Sequence record: NC_073319.1
DNA from: Escherichia phage SZH-1
Reading direction: 5' to 3' (one strand)
DNA: 43,969 nt
The position numbers were made by a program, and so were the translations under genes. Under the pieces are notes generated by a model. It saw only the letters and a list, made by a program, of their open reading frames with translations. It searched no databases and was not told the origin of the DNA. Shown piece by piece: positions 11,515 through 35,590 of this stretch; within the stretch, counting starts at the first letter, position 1, and the number at the start of each line of letters is the position of its first letter.

Positions 11515-11531
11515 GGCGGCCTTCGGGCCGC
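11515..11531 (+). promoter_or_regulatory. Intergenic RNA hairpin with UUCG loop
   Basis: GCGGCC-ttcg-GGCCGC followed by only TTT. Confidence 0.35.
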
Positions 11532-11551
11532 TTTAACTGAGGGTCGGAAAT

Positions 11552-11824
11552 ATGATTTACCAACTCTATCGCGCCGTAGACAGGCGGGATAACACAGAGG
11601 CGCTATGGCTATTGCGTGCGCCGTCCGGTGCGCACCAGATGGAAGAGATGGCGTACTTAGGCAAAGTACCGCGGCCTAAAGATATAGGCCGTCACGTGTC
11701 GCAGATTAAGCGCACGACTTTCGCAAAACCTGACTTTTATGTCTTCGAGTCGATGTATAGCTGGGCTATGCATTGCCAGCACCAGACCAGACATCTAATT
11801 GACCAGTGGGAGAACAGGGCATGA
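11552..11824 (+). CDS. Hypothetical protein (90 aa)
   Basis: ATG with GAGGG RBS; stop overlaps the next gene's ATG. Confidence 0.5.
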   Translation: MIYQLYRAVDRRDNTEALWLLRAPSGAHQMEEMAYLGKVPRPKDIGRHVSQIKRTTFAKPDFYVFESMYSWAMHCQHQTRHLIDQWENRA

Positions 11825-13062
11825 TTTTAAAAGAACGCGGCGGCAATAACGATGTTCACGCATTACTGTCGCCGTCAGGTGCTAAAAAATGGCTGTCATG
11901 CGCTGCATCACTGGCCTGTGAAAAAGATATTCCTAACACGTCCGGCAAAGCTGCCGTTACAGGTACCGCGTGCCACACCATAGCAGAGATGCACCTTAAC
12001 CAGTACATCAAAGGCACTGCACTGCCGTTAGAGCGTGAAGTTGGCGCTTACGTGCTGGATGAGGGTAAAGGCCAGATTAAGGCGCTAATCAGCCCGATGA
12101 AAGGTGCGGTGCTGATTACGGCAGACATGATTGAGCAGGTGCGCAAGTACACCGACTACTGCAAAGCTGTTATCGATGTAGCGACTTACGCCAAGCTCGA
12201 GATGCGGGTAAATCTTACTGAGGTATTGCATCCTGGTTACGAAGGCGTTGAGACGTTCGGAACCGCCGACCTTGTTGCCGTTCAGGAACTGGCTAACACA
12301 GACGAGCACATGCTTATTATCGGCGACCTGAAAACGGGACGCCATCGTGTTGAAGCGAAAGAAAACAAGCAGCTTATGCTTTACGCTCTCGGTGTTTATC
12401 GCAGACTCAAGAGACGTTATAACATCACCGTGGTTCGTCTGGTAATCTTCCAGCCGTACGCCGGGGGCGCGTCGGAGTGGGACATCTCGGTTGAAGGTCT
12501 GGAACTGTTCGCTAAGTTCGCGCAGAAACGTGCCCTGTTAGCGTTAGGTGCATATTTCCGCGGTAAGAAGAACCTGAAAGCGTCGGATTTCAGGCCGTCA
12601 GTAGATGGCTGTCAGTGGTGTCGGTTCTCTGAACAGTGTGCCGCGCGTACAAAAACCGTTAACGCGGTACTGGCGGAAGAACTGGAGGATGACTTTGCAC
12701 TGGAGCTTACACCAGAGCAACTTGTGGCTGAGTACGAGAAGTTGCCGTTGTTGCGCCAGCACATCGACAAGGTTGAGAAAGCTATGGCTGCCGCTTTGCA
12801 TTCCGGTAAGAAAGTGCCGGGGTACAAACTGGTTGAAGGTCGCCCAGGTAATCGTGCGTGGAAAGATGCGGAGAAAGTGGCAGAACTCTACGGCGACAAG
12901 CTGACTAAAGAAGTGCTCATGACGCCAACCGAAGCGGTTAAAGTTGTGCCAGAAGAAGAACTGAAAGACTTCATTACCCGTAAGCCTGGCGCGCCATGCG
13001 TCACAACGGCAGACGACAAACGTCCTGAGTGGAATCAGGTAACAGAGGAGGATTTAGAATGA
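11821..13062 (+). CDS. PD-(D/E)XK nuclease, Cas4/RecB-like, with 4-Cys cluster
   Basis: ATG at 11821; nuclease core ...DLVAV...IIGDLKTGRH...; Cys residues WLSCAASLAC and CQWCRFSEQC; ends VTEEDLE. Confidence 0.7.
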   Translation: MILKERGGNNDVHALLSPSGAKKWLSCAASLACEKDIPNTSGKAAVTGTACHTIAEMHLNQYIKGTALPLEREVGAYVLDEGKGQIKALISPMKGAVLITADMIEQVRKYTDYCKAVIDVATYAKLEMRVNLTEVLHPGYEGVETFGTADLVAVQELANTDEHMLIIGDLKTGRHRVEAKENKQLMLYALGVYRRLKRRYNITVVRLVIFQPYAGGASEWDISVEGLELFAKFAQKRALLALGAYFRGKKNLKASDFRPSVDGCQWCRFSEQCAARTKTVNAVLAEELEDDFALELTPEQLVAEYEKLPLLRQHIDKVEKAMAAALHSGKKVPGYKLVEGRPGNRAWKDAEKVAELYGDKLTKEVLMTPTEAVKVVPEEELKDFITRKPGAPCVTTADDKRPEWNQVTEEDLE

Positions 13063-13232
13063 TGGTTTATATTCTCACGCGGTATCACCGCCGATACTCT
13101 ATTCAAGAACTTGATATTGTTTCTGTTCACGCTAAACGCGCCGACGCCGACAAAATTGCGGAAGAGAAGAACTCAAAGCATGAGGCGGTGCAGCCCTATA
13201 TTTATAAGGTAGTTCCGAAGAAACTTAAATAA
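13059..13232 (+). CDS. Hypothetical protein (58 aa)
   Basis: ATG overlapping the upstream stop, preceded by GAGGAGG. Confidence 0.45.
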   Translation: MMVYILTRYHRRYSIQELDIVSVHAKRADADKIAEEKNSKHEAVQPYIYKVVPKKLK

Positions 13233-13236
13233 AGTG

Positions 13237-13265
13237 TTGACACCTGAATAGTTAGCTATTATAGT
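13237..13265 (+). promoter_or_regulatory. Near-consensus sigma70 promoter TTGACA-N17-TATAGT with the same spacer dyad
   Basis: About 30 nt identical to the promoter at 10959; upstream of the SSB-like gene. Confidence 0.65.
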
Positions 13266-13323
13266 TCTAATCACTGGCCGGGCAGTTTCCCGGAGTAAAC
13301 GAAACTGAAAAGCGAGAAATCAA

Positions 13324-13950
13324 ATGGGACTGAAATTAAATCTGCGTAAAGTAAACACTGCATGGGTTAACGTATTTGAACGCGAAAAAGACCGTGAAAA
13401 CGACGATGGCTCAATCACTAAAGGCCAGTACAGCGCGACTATTATCCTGCCGTCCGACCACGCACAAATCGACGCGCTCTACGACACCGTTTACGCTGTA
13501 GTTGAAGAAGCGTTAGGTGCAGCCGCCGCCGAGAAGTGGATGAAGTCCAACTACGGCGAAGGTAAGCACATGGATAAATGTGCGATTAAAGACATTGCCG
13601 AGCGTGACAATCCGTTTGAAGACTTCCCGGAGGGCTTCTACTTCAAAGCGAAGGCACAGAAACAGCCGCTGATTGTAACCTCTAAAAAAGGTGAGACTCA
13701 GGTAGAGCAGGACTTCAACGTAGACGGCGAACAGATTGAAGGTGAACAAGTTTACAGCGGCTGCGTCGCTAACGTAAGCGTCGAAATCTGGTTCAGCCAG
13801 AAATATAAAGTCCTCGGCGTTAACCTGCTGGCGATTAAGTACGTCGGGGAAGGTAAAGCGTTCGGTGGTTCTAAAGTCGCTGCAAGCGTCAACGACCTTG
13901 AAGACGACGAAGAGGATGAAGCGCCGCGCCGCGAACGTCGCCGTCGCTAA
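13324..13950 (+). CDS. T7 gp2.5-like single-stranded DNA-binding protein
   Basis: Blocks align by eye with T7 gp2.5 (YSATIILP, PLIVTSKKGE, GVNLLAIKYVGEG...FGG); acidic DLEDDEEDE then basic RRERRRR C-terminus. Confidence 0.55.
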   Translation: MGLKLNLRKVNTAWVNVFEREKDRENDDGSITKGQYSATIILPSDHAQIDALYDTVYAVVEEALGAAAAEKWMKSNYGEGKHMDKCAIKDIAERDNPFEDFPEGFYFKAKAQKQPLIVTSKKGETQVEQDFNVDGEQIEGEQVYSGCVANVSVEIWFSQKYKVLGVNLLAIKYVGEGKAFGGSKVAASVNDLEDDEEDEAPRRERRRR

Positions 13951-13970
13951 TATCTGAATCAATTTAACTA

Positions 13971-13992
13971 AGGCCCTTCATTGGGCCTTTTT
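13971..13992 (+). terminator. Intrinsic terminator after the SSB-like gene
   Basis: AGGCCC-ttcatt-GGGCCT followed by TTTTT. Confidence 0.6.
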
Positions 13993-14006
13993 ACTAAGGG
14001 TCGAAA

Positions 14007-14165
14007 ATGATGTTTTTCTGTAAGCACGTATACCGATATATGAAGCCACTTCCGTGGTACGCGGACGAGTACCGTGCCGGGTACAGGCATGTGTGGATTT
14101 GCCGTGATTGTATGAAAATAAGACTCAGCGAAACTAAGGCACTGGATTTAAGGAAAAAGAAATGA
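14007..14165 (+). CDS. Hand-called small ORF (52 aa) coupled to the polymerase gene
   Basis: ATG with AAGGG upstream; contains WICRDC; stop overlaps the polymerase ATG. Confidence 0.35.
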   Translation: MMFFCKHVYRYMKPLPWYADEYRAGYRHVWICRDCMKIRLSETKALDLRKKK

Positions 14166-16435
14166 GCTACTTATACCTGGACTTTGAAACATTCTCCGAA
14201 GCCGATTTAAAGAAAGTTGGCTCCTACGCTTATGCTGAACACCCGTCGACCGAAGTGCTCATCTGTACCTATGCTTTTGACGACAAGCCTGTGCATATAT
14301 GGGATTGCACAGACGGCAGCGACATGCCGGGTGATTTGCATCGCGCGTTACGCCGCCTGGTTAAGCCAAACAGCCGCATCAAGATGGTGTGGCACAACGG
14401 TGGACTTTTCGATAGGCTCATCATGAAACACTGCTGGGGCTTTGATATTCCGGTAAGCAATACCATCGACACTATGATTTGGGCGTTCCGTCACGCGCTG
14501 CCAGGGTCACTTGATGCGTTGTGCGAAGTGCTGGGCGTGTCTGCAGACAACGCGAAAGATAAACGCGGAAAGGCGCTGATTCAGCGTTTCTCTAAACCGA
14601 CGCCGAAGAACTACAAAATCCGCCGTTACACCGCTGAAACACACCCGGACGAGTGGGCGCTGTTCATCAAGTACGCCGTGAGCGACATCACTGCGATGCG
14701 TGAAGTGTTCCATAAGCTGCCGCGTTGGGGTAACTCCGAGTTCGAAGACCGCGTACTGGAACTGGACCAGTTAATCAACGACCGCGGGTTCTTTGTCGAC
14801 ACGGCTCTTGCGGAGGCGGCGGTAGCGGCAGTTGAACGCCACAAGCAAGAGCTAAAAAATGAGGCCCGCGCGAAATTCGGGGGGAAGCTAACGGGGAAAG
14901 ACTTCCTGCCCATCCTTCGGGAGCTGGCACCGGCCTACAATATTTATAATGCGCAGAAGGCAACGCTCGAAGGTTTGCTAGAGGACGACGACTTGCCTGA
15001 CGATGCGCGCACAATCATTGAGATGCGCCTCGGTGCGGCCTCCACGGCGTCGACAAAATACAAACCGCTCCTGCTAGGACGGTCCAAAGACGGGCGCCGC
15101 CGCGGTTGCATCCAGTACGGTGGGGCAAAGCGCACTTTACGATTTGCGGGTAAAGGGTTCCAACCGCAAAACCTGTCGCGCGGGTACTACCATGACGACC
15201 CGACTAACGAGGAAAAGAAACTTGTACGCCAGCCGTGGGAGTCCGACGAAGACTGGAACCGTCGTCTCAACCCCCTATCGTTCGGCATCAATCTGCTGCT
15301 AAAGGGTCGGGCGCATCGCCGTTTCGATGTGTCTAAACTAACGGCCTCGACTGTCCGCAGTTGCATCATCCCGGAAAAAGGTAATAAGTTGCTCGTTGCC
15401 GACTACTCAAACGTGGAAGGGCGCGGGCTAGCCTGGACGGCGGGGGAGACGTCCGCCCTTGAGACGTTCCGCGCGGGGATTGATATCTATTGCGCCACAG
15501 CTGGTAAGATGTTCGGCATGGACCCCGTAGAACTAAAAGCCACCCGTAAGGACCTACGTCAGGTCGGGAAATGTTGCGAGCTTGGCCTCGGCTATGAGGG
15601 GGGTGTAGGGGCCTTTATGACTATGGCTAAAACTTACGGGCTGGACCTCTTTAAAATGACAGAGACAATGCGGGGCACGTTCCCCGACCACATTTGGGCG
15701 GCTACCGCCCGTGGCTACGAATGGGCCAGAATTCAGGAGGCTAAACGCCCGCCAAAGCCTGGTAAAAAAGATGAACGGGCCTCTTATGTGCTGCCTAAAG
15801 AAGTCTGGCGCACCTGCGACGCCATTAAGCGCATGTGGCGGGAAGCCCATCCGGAAACAGTGAAATTCTGGAATGACCTTAAGGATTCGGTGATAGCCGC
15901 CATTAGAAATCCGGGACGAGAGTTTTGGGCGGGGGCCCGAGTACGCCTTAACGGCGACAGAGCCATCCGCATCTGGCGTACTAAAGAGAAAGACAGACAG
16001 GGTAACTTTGTGCCGGGTTGGTGGTTGTGCGTGGAACTGCCGTCTGGGCGCATCATGTCCTACCCTGGTATAGGCTTAAGCGTCACTAAAGAGACTGACG
16101 AGGATGGGCGCGTAACAACTAACGTTCGCATTAAGTACCAGGGCGAAAATCAGACCACCCGCCAGTGGACAACTTTGTACACCCACGGCGGAAAATTGTG
16201 TGAAAACATCATCCAGGCGTTGTGCCGTGATTTACTGGTTAACGGACTCCTGACGGTCGAGGCGGCGGGCTACCCAATTGTACTCCACGTACATGACGAA
16301 TGTGTTGCCGAAACGCCAGACACGCCAGAGTACACGGTTAAAGAGATGGGTGACCTGCTATGCTCATTACCTGAGTGGGCCGAAGGGTTCCCGTTAACAT
16401 GGGCTGGGGAAGAGGTGTACCGTTATGCTAAGTAA
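14162..16435 (+). CDS. Family A DNA polymerase with 3'-5' exonuclease domain
   Basis: Exo motifs YLDFETFS, HNGGLFD, YAVSDI; polymerase motifs ADYSNVEGR, RQVGKCCELGLGYEGG, VLHVHDE. Confidence 0.9.
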   Translation: MSYLYLDFETFSEADLKKVGSYAYAEHPSTEVLICTYAFDDKPVHIWDCTDGSDMPGDLHRALRRLVKPNSRIKMVWHNGGLFDRLIMKHCWGFDIPVSNTIDTMIWAFRHALPGSLDALCEVLGVSADNAKDKRGKALIQRFSKPTPKNYKIRRYTAETHPDEWALFIKYAVSDITAMREVFHKLPRWGNSEFEDRVLELDQLINDRGFFVDTALAEAAVAAVERHKQELKNEARAKFGGKLTGKDFLPILRELAPAYNIYNAQKATLEGLLEDDDLPDDARTIIEMRLGAASTASTKYKPLLLGRSKDGRRRGCIQYGGAKRTLRFAGKGFQPQNLSRGYYHDDPTNEEKKLVRQPWESDEDWNRRLNPLSFGINLLLKGRAHRRFDVSKLTASTVRSCIIPEKGNKLLVADYSNVEGRGLAWTAGETSALETFRAGIDIYCATAGKMFGMDPVELKATRKDLRQVGKCCELGLGYEGGVGAFMTMAKTYGLDLFKMTETMRGTFPDHIWAATARGYEWARIQEAKRPPKPGKKDERASYVLPKEVWRTCDAIKRMWREAHPETVKFWNDLKDSVIAAIRNPGREFWAGARVRLNGDRAIRIWRTKEKDRQGNFVPGWWLCVELPSGRIMSYPGIGLSVTKETDEDGRVTTNVRIKYQGENQTTRQWTTLYTHGGKLCENIIQALCRDLLVNGLLTVEAAGYPIVLHVHDECVAETPDTPEYTVKEMGDLLCSLPEWAEGFPLTWAGEEVYRYAK

Positions 16436-16556
16436 ACTGATTATCGCAGTACTGGCGGGATTTGCCACCGGTGTCTACTGTCACGAGGGCCAATACGGCA
16501 TGATTGTAGCCGTATTAGGTATGTTCATCGCAATTTATCTGTGGGTGCTGGAATGA
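16425..16556 (+). CDS. Hand-called tiny membrane peptide (43 aa)
   Basis: MLSKLIIAVLAGFATGVYCHEG...; first of three ORFs linked by ATGA overlaps. Confidence 0.3.
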   Translation: MLSKLIIAVLAGFATGVYCHEGQYGMIVAVLGMFIAIYLWVLE

Positions 16557-16642
16557 AAATCTACTGGTTCTATGAAGAAGACTGTCGAATCTGTCCGCGC
16601 TGCGGGATTGAGCACACGAAACGTGAGGGGTGTGTATTATGA
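16553..16642 (+). CDS. Hand-called tiny zinc-ribbon-like peptide (29 aa)
   Basis: MKIYWFYEEDCRICPRCGIEHTKREGCVL; ATGA overlaps on both sides. Confidence 0.3.
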   Translation: MKIYWFYEEDCRICPRCGIEHTKREGCVL

Positions 16643-16791
16643 CAATGTTTGTATTTTGGACAATAGTAACCATGCTTGCACTGTTACTCGGGGCGGGAAT
16701 AGCCACGATGTTCTGTTATGGCCTGTTCTTTAAGTTTGTCGGTGTTGCCGTTCTAGGAGGGGCTTTCCTTACTTGGGTTCTACGCCCATGA
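16639..16791 (+). CDS. Hand-called tiny membrane peptide (50 aa)
   Basis: MTMFVFWTIVTMLALLLGAGIATMFCYG...; stop overlaps the VRR-NUC ATG. Confidence 0.3.
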   Translation: MTMFVFWTIVTMLALLLGAGIATMFCYGLFFKFVGVAVLGGAFLTWVLRP

Positions 16792-17102
16792 CTAAAGAGG
16801 GCCGCGTACAGAAATATGCAAAGGAGCGATTCGAGGCCCTTGGTGGCCTCGTTCGTAAACTTTCCTACGAGGGGCGTTCCGGCGCCCCTGACCTGCTGGC
16901 AATTCTCCCCGGCGGCGTCGTCTGGTTCGTCGAGGTTAAGAAAGACGAAAACACGAAGCCTGACCCCCACCAGCTACGTGAGCATGAGCGGATGCGCAAA
17001 CGTGGCGCAAATGTTTTTGTCGTTGGTTCGATAAAACAGATTGACACCCTAATAGCAGACTATTATAGTAAGCACATACCCCAACAATATAAGGAATTAT
17101 AA
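16788..17102 (+). CDS. VRR-NUC domain nuclease
   Basis: ATG at 16788 (listed ORF begins at TTG 16773); PD-(D/E)XK-like core ...PDLLAILPGGVVWFVEVKK... Confidence 0.65.
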   Translation: MTKEGRVQKYAKERFEALGGLVRKLSYEGRSGAPDLLAILPGGVVWFVEVKKDENTKPDPHQLREHERMRKRGANVFVVGSIKQIDTLIADYYSKHIPQQYKEL

Positions 17103-17103
17103 A

Positions 17104-17358
17104 ATGGCTATCGAACTTCAACTGTCAGTAAACACCATGATTATTGGTTCAATCGATTCATCTGTTCGTATCGGTAAATACACAGGGGCGTCAGTTAATT
17201 ACTCATGGTCTATGAAGGTTTCGGAAGTAAACCGTATCCTGGGTTTCGGGTCGGTTGGCCGCAAAGTGCTTGCGGAAGACGTAGCCAAACGGCTGTCCGT
17301 AGACTTCACAACGGCTGGAGAACTTATTAAGCAAGTTCAAGGCGAATTATCTAACTAA
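17104..17358 (+). CDS. Hypothetical protein (84 aa)
   Basis: ATG two nt after the upstream stop. Confidence 0.5.
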   Translation: MAIELQLSVNTMIIGSIDSSVRIGKYTGASVNYSWSMKVSEVNRILGFGSVGRKVLAEDVAKRLSVDFTTAGELIKQVQGELSN

Positions 17359-17361
17359 TAC

Positions 17362-17377
17362 AGGCCCTTCGGGGCCT
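17362..17377 (+). promoter_or_regulatory. Intergenic RNA hairpin with UUCG loop, no U-tract
   Basis: AGGCCC-ttcg-GGGCCT. Confidence 0.35.
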
Positions 17378-17397
17378 TAACTATAAGGAATTGAGAA

Positions 17398-17589
17398 ATG
17401 AAACACGAATACGACCGCAAACCAGCACGTGACATCGTACCGGGCGACATGATTTTCAATGTTAAGACCCGTCGCCCTGTTGCCGTTGATACGGTGTACG
17501 TAGAGTCGAACGGTAAACTGGTTATCGAAGACGTAACCGGTAACGTTACGGCGTTCGGGCGTAAAGAGTTAGTTCTGGTGGCGAAATGA
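17398..17589 (+). CDS. Hypothetical protein (63 aa)
   Basis: ATG with AAGGAA RBS. Confidence 0.5.
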   Translation: MKHEYDRKPARDIVPGDMIFNVKTRRPVAVDTVYVESNGKLVIEDVTGNVTAFGRKELVLVAK

Positions 17590-18269
17590 TTATCTGGTCA
17601 TTGTTCGACGGTTCGGGCCTCATGGCCCAACCGTGGGCGGAAGCGGGCCATACTTGCTATTGTTTCAACTACGACGGTGCCGACCACGGCGACTACGCGC
17701 GATTGGGCGCAAAAGTTGAACACGAGAACATCCACTATATAAACGCGTGGATTGACAATAAATTCGACTTCGAGGTTGCGCCGGATATTATTTTTGCGTT
17801 CCCTCCGTGCACAGATTTAGCTGTTAGCGGCGCAGCGCATTTCGAAACGAAGCGGAAGAAGAATCCAACTTTTCAGGTAGAGGCCGTGATTACATGCAAA
17901 GCGGCTGCGCGTCTGGCTAAAAAGTACAACGTACCTTATATGATTGAGAACCCGGTTAGCGTTCTTTCGTCTTTATGGCGCAAGCCTGACTATTCGTTCA
18001 ATCCGTACGAATACGGCGGCTATTTACCCGAAGACGACACGCACCCAATGTTCCCCGAATACATAAAACCGCGGGACGCGTACCCTAAGAAGACATGTAT
18101 TTGGGCGGGTAACGGTTTTGTGATGCCCGTTAAATCATGTGTCGCCGTGGTTGATGGGTACTCCGACCAACACAATAAATTAGGCGGTAAATCGGTGAGG
18201 ACAAAAACAATACGCAGCCTTACCCCGCGTGGTTTCGCAAAAGCAGTTCATGAGGCCAATCATGTCTAA
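17586..18269 (+). CDS. Compact DNA (cytosine-5)-methyltransferase-like protein
   Basis: Motif I LFDGSG, motif IV FPPCTDLAVSG, motif VI ENPV, RSLTPRGFAKAV near the C-terminus; only 227 aa. Confidence 0.55.
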   Translation: MIIWSLFDGSGLMAQPWAEAGHTCYCFNYDGADHGDYARLGAKVEHENIHYINAWIDNKFDFEVAPDIIFAFPPCTDLAVSGAAHFETKRKKNPTFQVEAVITCKAAARLAKKYNVPYMIENPVSVLSSLWRKPDYSFNPYEYGGYLPEDDTHPMFPEYIKPRDAYPKKTCIWAGNGFVMPVKSCVAVVDGYSDQHNKLGGKSVRTKTIRSLTPRGFAKAVHEANHV

Positions 18270-19686
18270 GTTTCAAAGGCGCGAGTACCAAAAGCTCATG
18301 ACTTCGTTCATGCTGCAACACCCTCGCTGTAATATCTGGTGCGGCATGGGAGGGGGTAAAACCTCCTCTACTATGTGGGTGCTTAATCGCCTGTTCCGCA
18401 ACGGGCAGCTTACGGAAGATGACCGCGTGTTAATCCTTGCCCCGTTACGCGTTGCATCAGGTACATGGCCCGCAGAACAAGAGAAATGGCAATTCCCGTG
18501 TCTGAGTGTCGTCGATGCGACCGGTTCAGAGAAGCGCCGCATCGCGGCGCTGGAGTCAGATGCTAACGTGGTGTGCACCAACTACGAAGTTATCGAGTGG
18601 CTGATTGACTACTACGGCAAAGACGACTGGCCTTTTACTGTTATTGTTGCCGATGAAAGCACGAAACTGAAATCATTCCGCAGCCGTTCTGGCGGAAGCA
18701 AGCGGGCGAAGGCGCTAAGCAAAGTGGCGTTCGGTAAGGTTAAGCGTTTCATTAACCTCACTGGCACACCGTCGCCAAACGGCCTCAAAGACTTGTGGGG
18801 GCAGAACTGGTTTATCGACGCTGGCGAGCGCCTCGGTTCATCATACACCGCATTCACCGACCGCTGGTTTAACTCGGTACAGAAAGGCAAATCCGCGATG
18901 GCGCGTGAGTATCATGCGCGCCCTGGCGCGGATAATGAAATTCACCAGAAGATGAAGGACATCAGTCTCACTATTGACGCCGCAGAGTGGTTCGGTTGCG
19001 AAGCGCCTATTATAGTGCAGGTTGAAATCGACCTGCCGAAGAAGGCGCGTCAGGCGTACATCGATATGGAGGAGAAGTTATTCGCGGAACTGGAGAGCGG
19101 AGAAGTTGAAGCGGCTAACGCGGCGGCGAAGACGTCAAAGTGTTTGCAGATTGCCTCCGGTGCCGTATATGTGACGGGCGACGACGGAGAAGCAACGAAA
19201 GAATGGGAGAAAGTGCACGACACAAAACTTGACGCACTTGAGTCGATTGTTGAGGAGTTACAGGGTGCGCCATTACTGGTGGCCTATCAGTTTAAGCACG
19301 AACTGGAGCGCATCCTGAAACGTTTCCCGCAGGCCCAGGCGTTTGCAAAAGGCGCTAAGGGTAATAAGCAGATGGACGCGTGGAACCGTGGTGAAATTGA
19401 GATTTTATGCGTTCACCCTGCGTCAGCGGGCCATGGTTTGAATTTACAGGACGGCGGGCATCATCTGGCATTTATTTCGCAAGGCTGGAACCTTGAGCAC
19501 TATTTGCAGGTCGTTGAGCGCATCGGCCCGGTACGCCAGAAACAGGCGGGCCACGAGCGCCCGGTGTTCCTGTATCATATCGTTGCTAAAGACACGCTGG
19601 ACGAGGTTGTTGCCGCGCGTGCAGACGAGAAGAAATCTGTCCAAGAAGAGTTGCTTAATTACATGAAGAGACGAGGTAAGAAATGA
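18262..19686 (+). CDS. SNF2-family (DEAD/DEAH-like) helicase
   Basis: ATG at 18262 (listed ORF begins at GTG 18229); GMGGGKT, DEST, LTGTPSPNG, C-terminal helicase motifs. Confidence 0.8.
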   Translation: MSKFQRREYQKLMTSFMLQHPRCNIWCGMGGGKTSSTMWVLNRLFRNGQLTEDDRVLILAPLRVASGTWPAEQEKWQFPCLSVVDATGSEKRRIAALESDANVVCTNYEVIEWLIDYYGKDDWPFTVIVADESTKLKSFRSRSGGSKRAKALSKVAFGKVKRFINLTGTPSPNGLKDLWGQNWFIDAGERLGSSYTAFTDRWFNSVQKGKSAMAREYHARPGADNEIHQKMKDISLTIDAAEWFGCEAPIIVQVEIDLPKKARQAYIDMEEKLFAELESGEVEAANAAAKTSKCLQIASGAVYVTGDDGEATKEWEKVHDTKLDALESIVEELQGAPLLVAYQFKHELERILKRFPQAQAFAKGAKGNKQMDAWNRGEIEILCVHPASAGHGLNLQDGGHHLAFISQGWNLEHYLQVVERIGPVRQKQAGHERPVFLYHIVAKDTLDEVVAARADEKKSVQEELLNYMKRRGKK

Positions 19687-19874
19687 AACTGTTTTGCGTA
19701 AGTTCTACTATAGGTGTTTTCGATGAAGGTAATTATTACGTCGCGGAGTACAAGGGTGGCGGGCAATTCGTGGTGATGGATAACACCGCCAATCGTTGGG
19801 GCGCGTGTTACGATGATAGAACAGGACTAATTTACACAGAGTCGGTAAATGGTGATTTTATGGAGTTCGAATGA
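19683..19874 (+). CDS. Hypothetical protein (63 aa)
   Basis: ATGA overlap with the SNF2 gene. Confidence 0.5.
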   Translation: MKLFCVSSTIGVFDEGNYYVAEYKGGGQFVVMDNTANRWGACYDDRTGLIYTESVNGDFMEFE

Positions 19875-20011: not shown

Positions 20012-20016
20012 AGAAA

Positions 20017-20043
20017 AGGCCCCGTTTGGGGCCTTAGTTTTAA
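20017..20043. terminator. Bidirectional terminator between the replication and tail operons
   Basis: AAGGCCCC-gttt-GGGGCCTT with T-rich flanks on both strands; near-identical to the hairpin at 31385. Confidence 0.65.
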
Positions 20044-20087
20044 ATAGTTCTTATCCAGCAACTTGATGCCATTCCGCTTGAGTTAAA

Positions 20088-28905: not shown

Positions 28906-29297
28906 CTATCGGTGTGGTGCTTAACTACGGCTTCTGCCAACCCACTGTACTGGTCAAACAGGTTAGCCAGCGCCTCTTTGCTGAACGGTTCGTCGAATGA
29001 CCAACCGGTGACGATTTCCACGGCAAGCTGCTTGTTCAGGTCCATCACCCGCCAGCCCTTCTCATCATTATAACGCGCCCAGTTATTCAGTGCCTCACAC
29101 TCTTTATCTAATGGCGCAAGTTCTTCCGTAAGGCGTCGAATTGCCGTTGTGTAGGCGCGGCCCGCGCTAACCCCGACATCACAATCAGGACCAATGACCT
29201 GCAACCATTCTCCGGAGTCTTTACCACTCGGCAGAAGGATAGGCATTTTAGTACCGGCAGCGTGTCGGTCAGCAAAATAGAAATCAGAAAGTTTCAT
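28881..29297 (-). CDS. Tail assembly chaperone (gpG-like)
   Basis: Directly upstream of the tape measure gene; AAGGA RBS; carries the frameshift site. Confidence 0.6.
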   Translation of the reverse strand: MKLSDFYFADRHAAGTKMPILLPSGKDSGEWLQVIGPDCDVGVSAGRAYTTAIRRLTEELAPLDKECEALNNWARYNDEKGWRVMDLNKQLAVEIVTGWSFDEPFSKEALANLFDQYSGLAEAVVKHHTDSREKLSEK

Positions 29298-29404
29298 TCT
29301 TTAGTCCTTTGGTTAAGAGGTTACAGGTTAAGGTTGACGCGCCAGACGGGAACCACCCGCTTTTCGTGTGCGACACTAGGCGCAAACTTATTCTAGCACA
29401 CTAC

Positions 29405-29433
29405 TTGCACACCCCAATATAATAGGGTACTAT
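29405..29433 (+). promoter_or_regulatory. Promoter TTGCAC-N17-TACTAT with dyad AATAG-ggta-CTATT for the plus-strand island
   Basis: 27-nt core caccccaatataatagggtactattca identical to the copy at 38263. Confidence 0.5.
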
Positions 29434-29461
29434 TCACCTGTAACTTACTGAGGAAATAATT

Positions 29462-29788
29462 ATGCGTAAATTAGTGTTAGCTCTTGGTTTTATGTCTTTT
29501 GCTACTTTTGGGTCTCCGTGTGAACAGGTGTTTAGTGAATCCGTTCTTATGACTTCTGGTGTGCTTGATAGAGCCGACCCTACTATTGTAAAGGCATTTA
29601 AGGACTCTACAGTTCGCGAGTGTGAGGCCGCCGTGGAGGTTGGTAAATCGGGCCTACCCCCGCAGGCCGTAACCTACACAGTGATACGTTCGGTAGAGAA
29701 AAACGGAGATGCTTTCTATAGCCTACTGACAGCCACCCGTCTGCAAATGGTAATGACAGGGTGGGCGATAGGCGCAGAAAGTAAATAG
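29462..29788 (+). CDS. Secreted/periplasmic small protein (108 aa)
   Basis: Signal-peptide-like MRKLVLALGFMSFATFG; two Cys; GAGGAAA RBS. Confidence 0.55.
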   Translation: MRKLVLALGFMSFATFGSPCEQVFSESVLMTSGVLDRADPTIVKAFKDSTVRECEAAVEVGKSGLPPQAVTYTVIRSVEKNGDAFYSLLTATRLQMVMTGWAIGAESK

Positions 29789-29853
29789 TTGCCTTTATTT
29801 AAAGGAATCCACTGTGGTTAAATAGAACAAATCCTAAACACGAGGAAGTAAGC

Positions 29854-30984
29854 ATGGCCCAGAAGAAAATAACCGACGAACAGTTACAGGAAGAATTGAA
29901 CGCCGGGATGAAGAATGTAGACATCGCCCGTAAATACGGCATCTCAGACCGAGTTATTCGTATCCGTAAAGCGAAGCTGGCTAAGAAAGGTGTAGGCCAC
30001 GGGCGTGACGTTAGCCACCTTGTCCCAGACGGCTACAAGATTAAAGGGACGTCGTCTCTGGTAGACGAGTTCGGCAATACTAAGTTGCAATGGGTTAAGA
30101 CAGACACCGACGCTGAACGTCAGGTCGAGTTGATGAAAGCCGTGATTGAAGGCATGAAGTCAGAGATTACGCCAGTTGCGCCGGCTAAAGCGACTCGAGC
30201 CAAACGCGACGACAAGCTACTCAATCTTTACACGGTATCTGATTTCCATCTCGGTATGCTTGCCTGGGCCGACGAGAGCGGCGACGACTGGGATATAAAG
30301 ATTGCGGAAGACCTGTTCTCTCGTTGGTTCGACGCGGCGTTTCAGAAAGCACCGGATGCAGGAACAGGAGTTATTAACCTGCTGGGTGATTTCGCGCACT
30401 TCGATAGTCTGGATGCCGTTACACCTGAGTCGCGTCACGTGTTGGACGCAGACACTCGCTACCAGAAACTCGTCCGCTACATGATTCGTATGGTACGCCG
30501 TGTTGTAGATATGGCACTGGTTAAACATAAAAATGTTCGCTTGCTTATCGTACAGGGGAACCATGACCCTGTAGGCTCTGTATGGCTGGCTGAAATGTTC
30601 ACAGTTTTATATTCGAACGACAGCCGAGTGATTGTCGATACGTCGCCGGATGTTTACAAGATGGTGCAACACGGAAAAACGACGTTGTTCTTTCACCACG
30701 GGCATAAGGCGCGATTCGATGCTATCGAACCGGTTATGATTGCCAAATTCCGCAAAGCGTTCGGCGAGAGTGTTTACAGCTACGCCCACGTCGGCCACCT
30801 GCACCACCAGAAGATTGTAGAAAGCCGTAACATGATTGTTGAGCAACACCGCACCTTAGCGGCTAAAGACGCCTACGCCTCCCGCGGCGGATGGATGTCG
30901 GGCCGTAGTGCAAACGTAATTACTTATAGCGCCGAATATGGCGAGGTCGCGCGTTTAACTATTTCACCGGAGATGTTGGGATGA
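29854..30984 (+). CDS. HTH-fused calcineurin-like metallophosphoesterase
   Basis: N-terminal HTH NVDIARKYGISDRVIRIRKAKL; all five metallophosphoesterase motifs: SDFHLG, LLGDFAHFD, VQGNHD, FFHHGH, HVGHLHH. Confidence 0.75.
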   Translation: MAQKKITDEQLQEELNAGMKNVDIARKYGISDRVIRIRKAKLAKKGVGHGRDVSHLVPDGYKIKGTSSLVDEFGNTKLQWVKTDTDAERQVELMKAVIEGMKSEITPVAPAKATRAKRDDKLLNLYTVSDFHLGMLAWADESGDDWDIKIAEDLFSRWFDAAFQKAPDAGTGVINLLGDFAHFDSLDAVTPESRHVLDADTRYQKLVRYMIRMVRRVVDMALVKHKNVRLLIVQGNHDPVGSVWLAEMFTVLYSNDSRVIVDTSPDVYKMVQHGKTTLFFHHGHKARFDAIEPVMIAKFRKAFGESVYSYAHVGHLHHQKIVESRNMIVEQHRTLAAKDAYASRGGWMSGRSANVITYSAEYGEVARLTISPEMLG

Positions 30985-31211
30985 CTTCAAAATACAACCG
31001 CACAATGACAAACACCCACGGCAGCACTATGACTGTAGACGTTTACGATGTGCTGCGCGCCTTCGACATCCGCGACCCGGCGCTACAGCACGCATTGAAG
31101 AAGCTACTGTGTATGGGCCTTCGCGGACACAAGGATACCGGGACAGACTTAGCGGAAGCAATTGAAAGTCTGGAGAAGTTACAGGAGTACAGGAGTAACA
31201 TTGATGAGTAA
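30981..31211 (+). CDS. Hypothetical protein (76 aa)
   Basis: ATGA overlap with the phosphoesterase gene. Confidence 0.5.
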   Translation: MTSKYNRTMTNTHGSTMTVDVYDVLRAFDIRDPALQHALKKLLCMGLRGHKDTGTDLAEAIESLEKLQEYRSNIDE

Positions 31212-31380
31212 GACCGTAATGAAAACAATATACGTAATCCGTGTATATGACGAAGAATGGGATGAGTGGGTCGATATTTACGCCGTGGGTAGCAAGGAAG
31301 AGGCCTCGAAAGAGATGACAGAACGGAGTGACCGAGGTCAGTTAACTAACTTCTATGAAATGCCGTTCAAAAGTGAGTGA
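31204..31380 (+). CDS. Hypothetical acidic protein (58 aa)
   Basis: Internal ATG overlapping the upstream stop by 8 nt; followed by a terminator. Confidence 0.45.
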   Translation: MSKTVMKTIYVIRVYDEEWDEWVDIYAVGSKEEASKEMTERSDRGQLTNFYEMPFKSE

Positions 31381-31384
31381 GAAA

Positions 31385-31411
31385 AAGGCCCCGAAAGGGG
31401 CCTTAGTTTTA
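31385..31411. terminator. Bidirectional terminator between the plus-strand island and the major tail gene
   Basis: AAGGCCCC-gaaa-GGGGCCTT with T-tracts on both strands. Confidence 0.65.
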
Positions 31412-32581
31412 TGCGTAGGTGATACGCTGGATAATAATGGACGACTGGTACTGGTTGCCGGTTGCCTGGCCTTCAATGGACTGAGTGATTGACTCAGGTC
31501 CTCCAATCTCAGGTGTGACCGCCGTAAGTTCTGCGCGTTTCAGACTGAAAGACATAGCACCGTTTACTCCCGCCAGAATAGAGTTAATCTCTACCTGCTG
31601 TTCATTGATAAACTTCTGAATCATCGCCATGTCGTACAGCTTGCCGGAGATGGAGAAGGTGTTAGCCGCGCGACCGCGTTCCACGAACGCAACGCTACTG
31701 TTGCCAAGTTCGAACTGCGCAGAAGCACCGTTGTCGTTGGTGATGGTCAGAGTATCGCAACGCAACGGCGTTGAGCCATCGAACACAGAAACATCAACCG
31801 AAGAGAACGGCTCGTCGCCAAACGTAACAGATGAGAAGTTGGAACCGGTCGGCGGCGTAGTGAGAATCTCCTGACTGCGGCCGATGAATGGGAAGCTGCC
31901 AGTTACCATCGCGTTAACAGCCTGTTCGATGGTAAAACCAGAAACTTCCACGCCTTTGGTTAACGTGTACGCGTCAGTACCGCCGCACTGGCCTTTGTAC
32001 CAGGTAAGGATAGAGAACGTCTTACACGTGTTACCGGTTTCCAGCGTGTCGCCGGTTTTAGCCTTACTAGTTTTTGTCTCGGTGGTCAGGGTGTGTTGGA
32101 TGCCCGCACCAGTAACAACCGTAGCCGTTACTGCAGTAACAATAAATGGTTTTGCGTTATCGCCTGTTAAATCGGTAAATGCAATCAGGTCGCCTACCCC
32201 AACTCCGTCAGCGATAAAACTGCCGGTGGCGCGTGTGAACGTCTTGCCCGCGGGTGCGACGGTAATCGACAGACTGGACAGGGAAACACCGGATTGCCAC
32301 GTAGAGCCTAAAGCACCAGCTAGCCAGTCATCCTGGCTTTTCGAGCTAAGCTCGATCGCGTATTCACCGCTAACCTGTTTGTTACCGGTGCGGATGGATG
32401 TAGTTTCACGGCTGCCGTCCAGTTCGTTGGAAGTCAGCGCATCGCGGGTTACGGCAGGAACGCCACCAGTGTTACGCAACGGAGACCAGACCGGGTTACT
32501 TGGTGTTACGCCCGGGGTCACTTCTGCCACATAGAATTGCGCGGTATTCGCGCCCTTAAAAGGAGTTGTAGCCATATTCAC
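31409..32581 (-). CDS. Major tail protein
   Basis: 390-aa T/S/G-rich protein between tail completion genes and the chaperone genes. Confidence 0.65.
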   Translation of the reverse strand: MNMATTPFKGANTAQFYVAEVTPGVTPSNPVWSPLRNTGGVPAVTRDALTSNELDGSRETTSIRTGNKQVSGEYAIELSSKSQDDWLAGALGSTWQSGVSLSSLSITVAPAGKTFTRATGSFIADGVGVGDLIAFTDLTGDNAKPFIVTAVTATVVTGAGIQHTLTTETKTSKAKTGDTLETGNTCKTFSILTWYKGQCGGTDAYTLTKGVEVSGFTIEQAVNAMVTGSFPFIGRSQEILTTPPTGSNFSSVTFGDEPFSSVDVSVFDGSTPLRCDTLTITNDNGASAQFELGNSSVAFVERGRAANTFSISGKLYDMAMIQKFINEQQVEINSILAGVNGAMSFSLKRAELTAVTPEIGGPESITQSIEGQATGNQYQSSIIIQRITYA

Positions 32582-32994
32582 AGCCTCTTGGTGAATGCAA
32601 TAAAGTTAATTGACAATGGTCGTTTGGCCCATCCGTTTTCTACAATCAGCGGCCCCAGGCTAACCGATTGAACCTCGGCGCAGATGTCGTTACGTGAAAA
32701 TGACTTACCTGCTTTAAACGCTGTGTTAAGTAAGTCTGCCATTTTATTGATTGGCGCGCTACCTTTCACCGATGCGTAGTTAATGTCTACCTGATAAACA
32801 CCGGCGCGTTGCTCGGTGAAGAACAAATCGGCCTGTTCCGTATCGGCAAGTAACATGTAACTCGCCAGATAGGGCGTATCGGTTGACGTCGGTGCGTCGA
32901 TGTTTTCAAGCGCGACATTGATGCCGTTGGCAGTTCCGAAGGCTACCAGCGGCACGTCAAACGCTTTTGTTAAGTCCTCAAAGTAGCCCATCAT
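32578..32994 (-). CDS. Tail terminator / tail completion protein (by position)
   Basis: ATGA-coupled, directly upstream of the major tail gene. Confidence 0.45.
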   Translation of the reverse strand: MMGYFEDLTKAFDVPLVAFGTANGINVALENIDAPTSTDTPYLASYMLLADTEQADLFFTEQRAGVYQVDINYASVKGSAPINKMADLLNTAFKAGKSFSRNDICAEVQSVSLGPLIVENGWAKRPLSINFIAFTKRL

Positions 32995-33386
32995 TTCACC
33001 TTGTTGGCTTCTTCATTAATGAGTTGCTGGAAACGCGATATGTTAGTCCTTACCATGCCTTGCGGGGCCTGTTGTGACCAGCCATACTCCAGCCGCTGTA
33101 TATACGGCAGGTTATTGGTAAGTGTGAATTCGCGCCAGTCTGTAGCGGTGTTTATAACCGCAGTAACGCGCTGGATAGTAGCCGTTCCTTGTGGTGCGCC
33201 GTAGGTAGTAGTTTCCGGTGACGGAGTACCGCCCGACGCGAACCAGTTATTTCTCGCACGACCGGTATCAACTGGCGTCGCCTTTATAATAGCGGAAAAC
33301 AGCTTAATAGACACCTGACGCATCACCTTCTCAGGGTTCTTCTTCGCCTTTTCCACGAACTTAGAGACATCAAGCGCGAAACTCAT
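32991..33386 (-). CDS. HK97 gp10-like head-tail joining protein
   Basis: VDTGRARNNW matches the DTGRLRNSW signature of the HK97 gp10 family. Confidence 0.6.
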   Translation of the reverse strand: MSFALDVSKFVEKAKKNPEKVMRQVSIKLFSAIIKATPVDTGRARNNWFASGGTPSPETTTYGAPQGTATIQRVTAVINTATDWREFTLTNNLPYIQRLEYGWSQQAPQGMVRTNISRFQQLINEEANKVK

Positions 33387-33742
33387 TTTCTCACCTGAAT
33401 AAAGTAGGCTACGGCATCATCATTAACCATCTTCTTCTCGATAGCTACGACAGACCATTGCTCGCCGCCGAATTGCACCTTGTCTTCCATCTTCGGAACG
33501 ACGCTGTAATCGGCTTTAACAATCATGTCGCCAGCCTGAATCGTCGTACCGTTTACCAGTCCCGCGTTTACCGGAACCGGAACGGCCTTCAACGGTAGCA
33601 CTTCATTCGCGGACCAGACGTACTCGCCGAGGGCTTCATCCCACACTTTCGAGCCAGCGCGAATCAGAGATACTGTGCTGCCGAATTTGGCTAGCAGGCG
33701 CGTACCCACGACTTGCATACGTTTACTGAAAGCGGTGCTCAT
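33383..33742 (-). CDS. Head-tail adaptor / head closure protein (by position)
   Basis: 119-aa ORF in ATGA overlap within the connector block. Confidence 0.45.
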   Translation of the reverse strand: MSTAFSKRMQVVGTRLLAKFGSTVSLIRAGSKVWDEALGEYVWSANEVLPLKAVPVPVNAGLVNGTTIQAGDMIVKADYSVVPKMEDKVQFGGEQWSVVAIEKKMVNDDAVAYFIQVRK

Positions 33743-33851
33743 TTGACGCCTCTCTTGGTCGAAAGAATGTTGGCTAATTCCTTACTTGCGTCAGACAACC
33801 GCTTCTTATGACCATAACTACGTTTTATTACGGTGCGTTTTTTACACCCCA

Positions 33852-34466
33852 TTACGCGGCCTCCAGTCTCGAAATAACCAGTAGCGCGGACGGTGCTGTG
33901 CCCCATGCGGTTACGGTAGCCGATTGTGGGTATACGCCGCCGAAGTTGCTTCCAGCGCTATCTCGCATAATCTGAACGGCAAATGTCTGGCCTGCAGTCG
34001 GGTTAATAACGACGCGAGACTCAATCGGGATTGTAGTATCCGCGCTTACCAGTTTAGTAGCTGCGGGCGAGCCGTACTGAGCGCCGTTCAGAAGAAGGCG
34101 TGATAACAGGATAGACGTTCCGCTAGCCCCCGTGCGCCCAGCCTGTAACTTGATGCGAACGGCATAGTTACCCGCGGTGTTGAACGTAACCAGCCCCGCG
34201 GCATTAATCATTACAGGGTCGGATGCGCTACCCTGTGCAGCTCCAAAAGTTAACTGCAACGCCGTGTTCGTTGCGGTGGGCACTTGTATCACGGTCGACG
34301 CTGCGCGGAGAACTTCAACCTCTTTAACACCGGGAGTGGCGTAAATAGGTGAGTCCGCCATCTGCGTCATTACCTCGCGTAGCTTCGCGGGTGTGATGGC
34401 ACCGTTGGTGTTATCGGGGAGATTCGCGCCGATGAGGGTGAACATCTCTGATTTAGTCTTCGCCAT
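33852..34466 (-). CDS. Hypothetical structural protein (204 aa)
   Basis: A/T/G-rich protein in the connector region; function unassigned. Confidence 0.45.
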   Translation of the reverse strand: MAKTKSEMFTLIGANLPDNTNGAITPAKLREVMTQMADSPIYATPGVKEVEVLRAASTVIQVPTATNTALQLTFGAAQGSASDPVMINAAGLVTFNTAGNYAVRIKLQAGRTGASGTSILLSRLLLNGAQYGSPAATKLVSADTTIPIESRVVINPTAGQTFAVQIMRDSAGSNFGGVYPQSATVTAWGTAPSALLVISRLEAA

Positions 34467-34468
34467 TT

Positions 34469-34981
34469 TTAACCCCGGTACACATTAAATGAGAAGCCAT
34501 TGTTAAGACCACCACACAGTAACGGGCGTAAGGCGTCGTCCGCAGCGGTAATCGCGGTTGTAGCGCCACTGCTGCCGTTGTTGAAGTATGTCACTGTTAC
34601 TGCGCCCTCAACACGCTCAGTCTGCACGGAACGCCCGTCAGAGTTGGCCCGCACTTCCGTGCCCGCGCCATATGTGGCGGAGGCGATTACCTGCGCAAGA
34701 ATTACCTGTTTCGGGATAACATTATCCGCTACCGGGAATCCGTTTAACGTTACCCCGGTGCGAGGATATGCCAGAGACTGTTCGGCGGATACACGACGAC
34801 CACACATCTGCGGTTCCGCAAGCCCGACATAAGTTGCGCCGTTGCGCAAGGCGACTTCGGCGGCGGTACCATCCGCAGGTAGCTCAAGGCCATAATTAGC
34901 CGCTAACGCGCGGGCGTCAGCCAGACTAACGTAACTGTCGGCATTCGGGACGATTGCCCCCGTTTCCACGATTAGCGGCAT
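34469..34981 (-). CDS. Head-tail connector protein (gp6-like)
   Basis: N-terminal SYVSLADARALAANYGLELPADG resembles the gp6-like connector family pattern. Confidence 0.5.
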   Translation of the reverse strand: MPLIVETGAIVPNADSYVSLADARALAANYGLELPADGTAAEVALRNGATYVGLAEPQMCGRRVSAEQSLAYPRTGVTLNGFPVADNVIPKQVILAQVIASATYGAGTEVRANSDGRSVQTERVEGAVTVTYFNNGSSGATTAITAADDALRPLLCGGLNNGFSFNVYRG

Positions 34982-34984
34982 AAA

Positions 34985-35164
34985 TTATTCCTCTGACTTA
35001 CGGCGACGTCGCTTAGTACCACCGCCGTTGTTGTGCGCTTCTTCGTTGTCCAGTTGAGTCGCAACCAGTTCATCCGCTTCTACCACACCGCGAACAGGCA
35101 TTACCTGACCGTCAACAATATCAACGTGGGTGTACTTTTCGCGGATTACATAATTATCTGCCAT
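34985..35164 (-). CDS. Hand-called small ORF (59 aa)
   Basis: MADNYVIREKYTHVDIVDGQ...; preceded by AAGGAAAGG RBS. Confidence 0.4.
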   Translation of the reverse strand: MADNYVIREKYTHVDIVDGQVMPVRGVVEADELVATQLDNEEAHNNGGGTKRRRRKSEE

Positions 35165-35178
35165 GACCTTTCCTTATT

Positions 35179-35196
35179 ACGGCCCCGAAGGGCCGT
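35179..35196 (-). promoter_or_regulatory. RNA hairpin with UUCG loop between decoration gene and next gene
   Basis: Minus-strand ACGGCCC-uucg-GGGCCGU, immediately 5' of the RBS of 35164. Confidence 0.4.
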
Positions 35197-35200
35197 TGTA

Positions 35201-35545
35201 TTAAGACACAGTTGCTACAGTGCTGCTGGAGATAATATTACCATATACGTCGTGAACAACCACTTTATACGTACCGGAGTCGGTAGTAGCAACAGTAGTG
35301 GCCTTGGTGTACGTAGCCTCGGTAGCGCCTGCGATGGCGTTGTTATTCTTATACCACTGGTAGGAATAAGGGGCCAGACCACCAGTTACCGCAACAGTGA
35401 GAGTCAATGCGGCGGGTGCGGTAACCTCGGTAGTAGCGTTAAGTGGGGTAGAAAAAGACGCAGGAGAAATAGTCGCCATGTCAATCTTAGCACCTGGGGC
35501 GTCAGCGGAGACGCCGGTGATGCGCCGCTTCAATACGTCTGCCAT
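35201..35545 (-). CDS. Ig-like domain head decoration protein
   Basis: YSYQWYKNNNAIAGATEATYT...DSGTYKVVV is an Ig-like signature; immediately after the capsid gene. Confidence 0.6.
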   Translation of the reverse strand: MADVLKRRITGVSADAPGAKIDMATISPASFSTPLNATTEVTAPAALTLTVAVTGGLAPYSYQWYKNNNAIAGATEATYTKATTVATTDSGTYKVVVHDVYGNIISSSTVATVS

Positions 35546-35570
35546 ATAGGAATCCTCTTAGTAAATGAAA

Positions 35571-35590
35571 AGAGGGACCGAAGTCCCTCT
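35571..35590 (-). promoter_or_regulatory. Hairpin/attenuator after the capsid gene
   Basis: Minus-strand AGAGGGAC-uucg-GUCCCUCU followed by UUUCAUUU. Confidence 0.45.

Follow-up and report, generated by a model that had tools for sequence, protein, structure and literature searches.

What is the role of short, extra-stable hairpins placed between the genes of a phage operon? This question is raised by Escherichia phage SZH-1 (sequence record NC_073319.1), of which we analyzed a stretch of 43,969 nt, hereafter the window, and by four small intergenic hairpins with a UUCG loop that it contains, here named H1 to H4. The original prediction held that these hairpins either lack a U-tract or lie directly before a ribosome-binding site, that they fit elements of RNA processing, stability or attenuation better than simple terminators, and that they may set the stoichiometry of capsid versus downstream products. 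Our analysis suggests a graded answer: the explanation that we favor, and that we consider fairly probable, is that the four hairpins constitute a class of sense-strand terminators and 3' stabilizers of differing action, acting within operons transcribed by the host RNA polymerase.

All four hairpins were recovered between genes on the coding strand, within 1 nt of the positions first reported, and they all present perfect G+C-rich stems. H1 (GCGGCC-UUCG-GGCCGC; plus strand, 11516-11531, or 11515..11532 with an outer G.U pair) starts 7 nt past the stop codon of the open reading frame (ORF) 11020-11508, which encodes a 162-aa protein of unknown function (phrog_3127), and the AUG of the next ORF (11552-11824) is found 20 nt downstream. 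Its tail reads UUUAACUGAGGG, and the first 8 nt of this tail (UUUAACUG) start with UUU and contain four U. H2 (AGGCCC-UUCG-GGGCCU; plus strand, 17362-17377) is located 3 nt past the stop codon of ORF 17104-17358 and 20 nt before an AUG at 17398; its tail (UAACUAUAAGGA) has no U-tract, with three scattered U among the first 8 nt (UAACUAUA). H3 (ACGGCCC-UUCG-GGGCCGU; minus strand, 35196-35179) lies 4 nt past the stop codon of a gene encoding a Hoc-like protein and 14 nt before the AUG at 35164, directly before the Shine-Dalgarno (SD) sequence of a 59-aa gene, and its tail (AAUAAGGAAAGG) likewise has no U-tract (one U in the first 8 nt, AAUAAGGA). Finally, H4 ((G)AGAGGGAC-UUCG-GUCCCUCU(U); minus strand, 35590-35571, or 35561..35591 with the outer G-U pair and the tract) is found 16 nt past the stop codon of the major capsid gene and 25 nt before the AUG at 35545. 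It is followed by a U-rich tract (UUUCAUUUAC), six of whose first 8 nt (UUUCAUUU) are U.

The UUCG loop is closed by a C-G pair on the sense RNA at all four sites, which defines the extra-stable C(UUCG)G tetraloop, and the stems of 6-9 bp, with 5-6 G-C pairs and a short loop, all correspond to the G+C-rich stem-loop of an intrinsic terminator. We observed that UUCG hairpins with a perfect stem of at least 6 bp are strongly overrepresented in the window: four are present, all of them intergenic and sense-oriented, against a mean of 0.11 and a maximum of two in 400 dinucleotide-preserving shuffles. The sole other UUCG hairpin of the window (18003-18016) has a stem of 5 bp closed by an A-U pair, is located inside a gene and looks like a chance occurrence. 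As to folding with energy estimates, a check that the original prediction had proposed, RNAfold recovers each of the four hairpins in its context, and the predicted hairpin energies are -11.2 to -13.7 kcal/mol. An SD sequence is found within the next 4-16 nt 3' of each hairpin. No Rfam family matched at the gathering threshold when covariance models were searched over both strands of the whole window. The four hairpins are real and non-random, and the original prediction is upheld in part.

We further analyzed the evolution of these elements among related phages. The whole window corresponds to a Kagunavirus-type (Guernseyvirinae) siphophage of E. coli, with about 90% identity over long stretches to phages Golestan, hz69, Bas74 and others (BLAST against phage genomes), and its gene order is that of the annotated Bas74 genome. 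For H4 and H3 we fetched 72 loci around relatives of the capsid gene, 66 of which contain sequence past the capsid stop codon and 65 of which align across H3. A hairpin was found at the H4 position in all 66 loci, as 26 distinct variants whose stems differ (GAGGGAC, GAGGGGC, AGGGCGC and GGCGAC types) with their pairing kept; two of these loci come from distant phages, with capsid protein identities of only 58% and 37%. In an alignment of 23 sequences, six of the nine pairs of the H4 stem presented changes on both sides and 91.3% of the cells remained paired. The covariation score was 0.424, relative to 0.213 in shuffled alignments (none of 500 shuffles reached the observed score) and at most 0.19 when the partners were slid. 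The tail of H4 is U-rich in most clades (UUUUCAUUU, UUUUCAC).

At the H3 position, all 65 relatives carry a hairpin, in 24 variants that are each fully paired. Pairing at this site was assessed variant by variant, MAFFT having placed the 7-bp and 6-bp stem classes out of register. These two classes (ACGGCCC/GGGCCGU and GCGGCC/GGCCGC) differ by the coordinated loss of one C-G pair and a change of the outer A-U pair to G-C. Across clades, the hairpin is always found 3-6 nt ahead of an SD sequence, and the intervening tails are not consistently U-rich (AAUAAGG, UUUAAGG, CAUAAGG, AACAGG).

The loops of these variants indicate the level at which selection acts. At the H3 position they are UUCG in 13 variants, UCCG, UGCG and GAAA in two variants each, and GCAA, CUCG, CCCG, UCCU and UUAG in one each; across the comparison the loop sequence varies between UUCG, UACG, UGCG, UCCG, GAAA and GCAA. 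Loops of the UNCG or GNRA classes, which together represent 12 of the 256 possible tetraloops, were found on the sense strand in 20 of 26 H4 variants and 20 of 24 H3 variants, and no observed loop has a reverse complement that falls into these classes. In addition, the sense stems contain G.U pairs, which are A-C mismatches on the opposite strand. Because the loop varies within stable classes, stability is conserved rather than a sequence recognized by a protein. Since both the stable loops and the G.U pairs are specific to the sense strand, what selection maintains is a stable hairpin in the sense RNA, not a DNA palindrome. These results point to selection at the level of RNA structure. The same two features argue against antisense terminators, although ARNold calls the H3 homologue of Golestan in antisense and our scan of the window flags H2 on the minus strand.

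Two other structures were considered around the hairpins and were rejected. A long-range helix bracketing H4 and covering the downstream start codon appeared in the fold of the window, and it is not conserved in Jersey-type phages or in other clades. Pairing with the SD sequences (the 3' arm of H4, CCUCUU, with the downstream SD AAGAGG, and an alternative H1 fold that sequesters its own SD) likely represents a coincidence, as the complementarity is lost in other clades.

The U-tracts divide the four hairpins into two groups. The absence of a U-tract holds for H2 and H3, is marginal for H1 and does not hold for H4, with three, one, four and six U in the first 8 nt, respectively. Similarly, the view that these elements are not simple terminators fails for H4, which combines a hairpin with a U-tract, and is weakened for H1 by its UUU tail. 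A rough score of the d'Aubenton-Carafa type was positive only for H4 and H1, although the formula is approximate and was combined with modern energy parameters, such that the score serves for ranking only. H4 was also listed by our terminator scan of the window. The genome paper of Golestan reports 13 Rho-independent terminators predicted by ARNold (PMC7203180, Table S5): T04 is the homologue of H4, with an identical sequence, T05 is the homologue of H3, called on the antisense strand only, and the list does not include the homologue of H1. The U content of the tract is a main determinant of terminator strength (PMC8783025, PMC9257418), and in E. coli the translating ribosome represses a terminator nearly completely when only a few bp separate it from the end of the gene (PMC4824070). 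With every sequence feature present and a workable distance of 16 nt from the stop codon, H4 is likely a canonical, leaky intrinsic terminator.

The surrounding genes further suggest that termination at these sites would have to be incomplete. On the minus strand, the scaffold gene (36659-37414; gene order as in Bas74 and PHROG matches) is followed by the gene for the major capsid protein (35607-36656; phrog_247, major head protein, E = 5e-119), H4, the gene for the Hoc-like, Ig-like head decoration protein (35201-35545; phrog_4069, E = 5e-50; Bas74 annotation), H3 and the 59-aa gene of unknown function (34985-35164; phrog_4451, E = 3e-32), after which come the head-tail adaptor and, farther along, the tail-tube gene at 31409. 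The minus-strand hairpins thus stand after the capsid and decoration genes. From H4 to the tail-tube gene, we found no promoter-like site with at least 10 of 12 matches on the minus strand and no copy of the promoter motif of this phage. Approximately ten head-completion and tail genes are thus expected to be expressed through read-through of H4 and H3, which requires a leaky H4 and precludes efficient termination at H3. A role in the stoichiometry of capsid versus downstream products is plausible, and the capsid hairpin is kept at its position in every relative examined.

On the plus strand, the replication genes form a block at 7926-19874, in which three units present the same order of a strong promoter, one gene and a hairpin. 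The sigma-70-like promoter TTGACA-N18-TATAGT (10959-10988, 11 of 12 matches) precedes gene 11020-11508 and H1. Matching plus-strand promoters, each with 11 of 12 matches, precede the gene of an SSB/annealing protein (13237-13265) and the 84-aa gene that ends at H2 (17041-17069). The SSB-like gene (13324-13950), the first behind its promoter, is followed by a hairpin of the same class without a UUCG loop (plus strand, 13970-13989; AAGGCCC-UUCAUU-GGGCCUU followed by the U-tract UUUACUAAGG), which is the homologue of Golestan T10. As sense-strand RNA elements within operons whose downstream genes need to be expressed, these hairpins fit partial termination (attenuation in a broad sense) and mRNA stabilization, the part of the original proposal of processing, stability or attenuation that is retained. 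The arrangement of genes and hairpins on both strands is in keeping with a control of stoichiometry.

The H1 and H2 sites were compared using 74 loci fetched around relatives of the DNA polymerase gene, of which 45 align across H1; 50 relatives were compared for H2. The sequence of H1 was nearly invariant in 43 of the 45 relatives, and in the other two the exact position of H1 is occupied by an unrelated hairpin, an argument that the site needs a hairpin, whatever its sequence. H2 was found in only 8 of 50 relatives, each time together with the 84-aa gene (17104-17358), and one of these eight has a stem weakened by a single-base change in the 3' arm. On either side of the gene and its hairpin lies a copy of an 11-nt direct repeat that corresponds to the ribosome-binding region (TATAAGGAATT; 17088-17098 and 17382-17392). 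Most relatives lack this cassette and possess a single copy of the repeat, and in relatives without H2 a promoter (TTGACG-N17-TATAGT) stands directly ahead of the homologue of gene 17398. Judged from this distribution, H2 is the 3' end of an inserted accessory cassette, and the repeat looks like the footprint of a moron-like insertion. An efficient terminator at H2 would cut off the downstream methyltransferase and helicase genes.

These observations can be assembled into a mechanism, of which termination, read-through and stabilization are inferred. At H4, the 9-bp G+C-rich stem, its C(UUCG)G loop and the U-rich tract would release a fraction of the polymerases and leave the capsid mRNA with a protected 3' end, such that the capsid message would exceed the messages of the head-completion and tail genes, reached by read-through alone. 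With its UUU tail, H1 would have the same effect to a lesser degree, at the end of the first gene that an early or middle promoter serves. At H2 and H3, a terminating ribosome would cover the 5' arm and there is probably little termination. These two hairpins are more likely to be barriers to decay than terminators because they have no U-tract and lie 3-4 nt past a stop codon: they could block 3'-to-5' exonucleases (PNPase, RNase II) and give the upstream cistron a longer life once the downstream RNA has been cut. By analogy with the malE-malF intercistronic structure, H2 and H3 may stabilize the upstream mRNA, a proposal to which we give a chance slightly short of even. A stable and conserved structure at the 3' border of a cistron expected to be more abundant, one of the properties of protective 3' stem-loops, is found after the capsid, Hoc-like, SSB-like and promoter-proximal genes. 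Moreover, low-energy 3' hairpins correlate with higher upstream expression (PMC9257418).

Several points weigh against this explanation. Covariation in the H1 stem is almost nil, such that conservation of this near-invariant sequence could reflect inheritance, and H2 is too rare for covariation. The H3 stem core CGGCC is nearly invariant, its changes being the coordinated loss of a C-G pair and outer-pair changes rather than many independent double substitutions, and the variants are phylogenetically related, so that the counts given above overstate the number of independent events. The terminator score only ranks the hairpins. The one Guernseyvirinae RNA-seq paper found (PMC12645636) gives no per-gene values in its text. 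Finally, a TATAAT sequence (TATACT in Jersey-type phages) is located between the capsid stop codon and H4 (minus strand, 35592-35606, TAAGGTTAAGCTATAATCGAGAGGG) and is kept in most clades with variable flanks. It is accompanied by neither a -35 element nor a TG extension in any clade, and it could represent an activator-dependent, -10-only promoter that starts within the hairpin, or a coincidence; a transcript might then start at this site.

Alternatively, all four hairpins could be plain intrinsic terminators of differing strength, the U-poor ones stopping a few per cent of the polymerases with no stabilizing role. The hairpin half of a terminator is present at all four sites, the tails at the H3 position include short U runs in other clades (UUUAAGG, CUUUAAGG), and T7 RNA polymerase shows some termination with as few as two U (PMC8783025). 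We nevertheless consider this unlikely given the low U content at H3 (1/8) and H2 (3/8) and their location 3-4 nt past a stop codon, where the function of terminators is almost completely repressed in vivo (PMC4824070). In addition, all 65 relatives retain the H3 hairpin, with a tail that is not kept U-rich, which suggests selection on the hairpin and not on a whole terminator.

The proximity of the hairpins to SD sequences permits two further interpretations, both of which we regard as improbable. In the first, the hairpins would protect the downstream cistron in a papBA-like manner, with RNase E cutting in an AU-rich spacer and leaving the hairpin at the new 5' end, or would insulate the ribosome-binding site from upstream structure. 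E. coli operons offer documented cases of such RNase E-generated 5' protective structures (PMC5927463), each hairpin is preceded by an AU-rich spacer (UAAUACA, UAACUAUCU), all four hairpins lie 4-16 nt upstream of an SD sequence, and the spacing of 3-6 nt is kept across clades at H3. However, the genes of the proteins that are expected to be abundant (capsid, decoration, SSB-like) stand before the hairpins and not after them, and H2 forms a cassette with the gene that precedes it, not with the one that follows. In the second, H2, H3 and possibly H1 would be gated by ribosomes, because they start 3-7 nt past a stop codon and end 3-6 nt before an SD sequence. The terminating ribosome would hide the 5' arm, such that formation of the hairpin would report the intensity of upstream translation, and this translation would in turn govern whether the upstream mRNA is protected, the downstream SD is exposed or transcription is weakly terminated; the modules of hairpin and SD might also serve as short homologous linkers for swaps of accessory gene cassettes in Guernseyvirinae.

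It is also conceivable that the elements act as DNA, either as palindromes bound by proteins or as short homologous linkers for the exchange of cassettes. Alignments to relatives break just past the hairpin and its SD at all four sites, and the same 21-mer (GCGGCCTTCGGGCCGCTTTAA) is used at H1 (11516-11536) and in the hairpin found at the H3 position of Jersey-type relatives (e.g., locus L031). But stem sequences change with pairing kept, stable tetraloops are found on the sense strand only, stem G.U pairs are meaningless for duplex DNA, and mosaic junctions at phage gene borders are usual with or without hairpins, all of which makes this interpretation very improbable. Processing by RNase III, as in the T7 early region or lambda sib, was part of the original prediction and is implausible: its substrates need about two helical turns, that is about 20 bp or more of (interrupted) double-stranded RNA, whereas the longest helix here has 9 bp (stems of 6-9 bp) with no longer conserved helix in the folds of the window or its relatives, and the intercistronic position in a phage operon is all that speaks for it.

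Several observations concern the exchange of genes at these sites. In most relatives an additional gene, of 123 aa, separates H4 from the Hoc-like gene (L002:3600-3990). This gene is lacking in the window and in four relatives, and its junction (window 35546-35570, minus strand) directly follows the shared SD AAGAGG. Two loci (L014, L021) contain an extra gene inserted directly after H3 and its SD, and about half of the relatives have a different gene after H1 and its SD. Cassette junctions thus coincide with modules of hairpin and SD. The 21-mer GCGGCCTTCGGGCCGCTTTAA was found at two separate places within one contig (L159, L167), and a search of IMG/VR yielded 42 stretches of viral contigs, confined to the phage family of the window. 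We rejected the possibility that the H1/H3 hairpin is a widely mobile element, as most of these 42 stretches are on contigs of 40-45 kb already recovered as relatives and the rest are shorter fragments. The stem core GGCC(C) is common to many other hairpins of the window.

The promoters present a feature of their own. The palindrome AATAG-N4-CTATT occurs 11 times in the window, where one occurrence is expected (an 11-fold excess). It is located at 6135-6148, 7488-7501, 10970-10983, 13247-13260, 17051-17064, 29421-29434 and 38273-38286, and with one mismatch at 2718, 10925 and 38182. These copies fall within the spacer and -10 element of sigma-70-like promoters (TTGACA/TTGCAC-N17-TATAGT/TACTAT), including those at 10959, 13237 and 17041, and the palindrome matches the PHIRE 'promoter' motif of Golestan. 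It resembles the operator of a phage repressor or activator, overlapping every early and middle promoter.

Other terminator-like hairpins are present in the window. A strong 11-bp hairpin (8365-8391; AGCCUCGGCGU-UCACC-GCGUCGGGGCU UUCUUUUAUU) is located between two plus-strand genes and has a U-tract on the minus strand only. It may be an antisense-oriented terminator within the replication operon, stopping transcripts from the region of a divergent minus-strand helix-turn-helix gene. The hairpins at 20016-20035, 31385-31404, 38828-38848 and 40616-40635 are based on AAGGCCCC, AAGGCCUC or AAAGCCCC and have A-tracts and U-tracts on both sides, as putative bidirectional terminator-like sites. The first three are found at the borders of convergent gene blocks, and the one at 40616-40635 lies between the co-directional minus-strand genes for the portal and head-morphogenesis proteins. 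Finally, a hairpin with a UACG loop (76-57, minus strand; AAGCCCUC-UACG-GAGGGCUU UUCUGUACAU) is directly followed by a promoter-like TGTACA-N18-TATAAT (53-24). Should the window be a whole genome in circularly permuted form, these two elements (24-76) would lie just upstream of the terminase genes, found at its opposite end, and constitute a junction of terminator and late promoter (Golestan T13).

The four hairpins belong to a class that is already known, and for two of them an in silico annotation exists in the close relative Golestan. Tuerk et al. reportedly described, in 1988, extra-stable C(UUCG)G hairpins in the intercistronic mRNA of phage T4. The elements analyzed here share with them the loop and its closing pair, a short G+C-rich stem, an intercistronic location in a coliphage that uses the host RNA polymerase and a stability intrinsic to the hairpin; they differ in belonging to a Guernseyvirinae siphophage. 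Phage T4 mRNA is where the UUCG tetraloop was discovered, in 1988 (PMC4371310). With the intrinsic terminators known from E. coli and from coliphages, among them the one that follows the capsid gene in T7-like phages, H4 shares the hairpin, the U-tract, a suitable distance from the stop codon and the post-capsid position, and H1 shares the hairpin and UUU, whereas the U-tract is missing from H2 and H3, which start only 3-4 nt past a stop codon.

The structure between malE and malF, a repetitive extragenic palindromic (REP) sequence, is the classic 3' hairpin that shields upstream mRNA from PNPase and RNase II and yields unequal stoichiometry within an operon. The hairpins of the window resemble stem-loops of this type in being stable, in standing just downstream of a cistron in higher demand within a polycistronic message, in needing no U-tract and in being conserved between relatives. 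In contrast, they are single tetraloop hairpins of 6-7 bp and not REP elements, they occur in a phage, and their stabilizing role is putative. Protective 3' structures shape the stoichiometry of operons in E. coli and are frequently conserved (Dar and Sorek 2018; PMC5927463).

What is new here is the evidence for selection on a sense-strand RNA, the division into terminator-like hairpins and hairpins without a U-tract, and the recognition that H2 belongs to a cassette. Two of the four hairpins are overlooked by terminator predictors, or one is assigned to the wrong strand, and the present assignments could be useful for the engineering of phages that are therapeutic candidates or of compact terminator and stabilizer parts. 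For phages of the Kagunavirus type, our results provide a reasoned transcript map, in which the replication region contains units of promoter, first gene and hairpin and the capsid gene is followed by a probable leaky terminator; this map has little import beyond annotation. If it is true that the hairpins without U-tracts set mRNA half-lives, they would offer a minimal model of 16-18 nt for the differential decay of operons in a phage, a principle that is already established.

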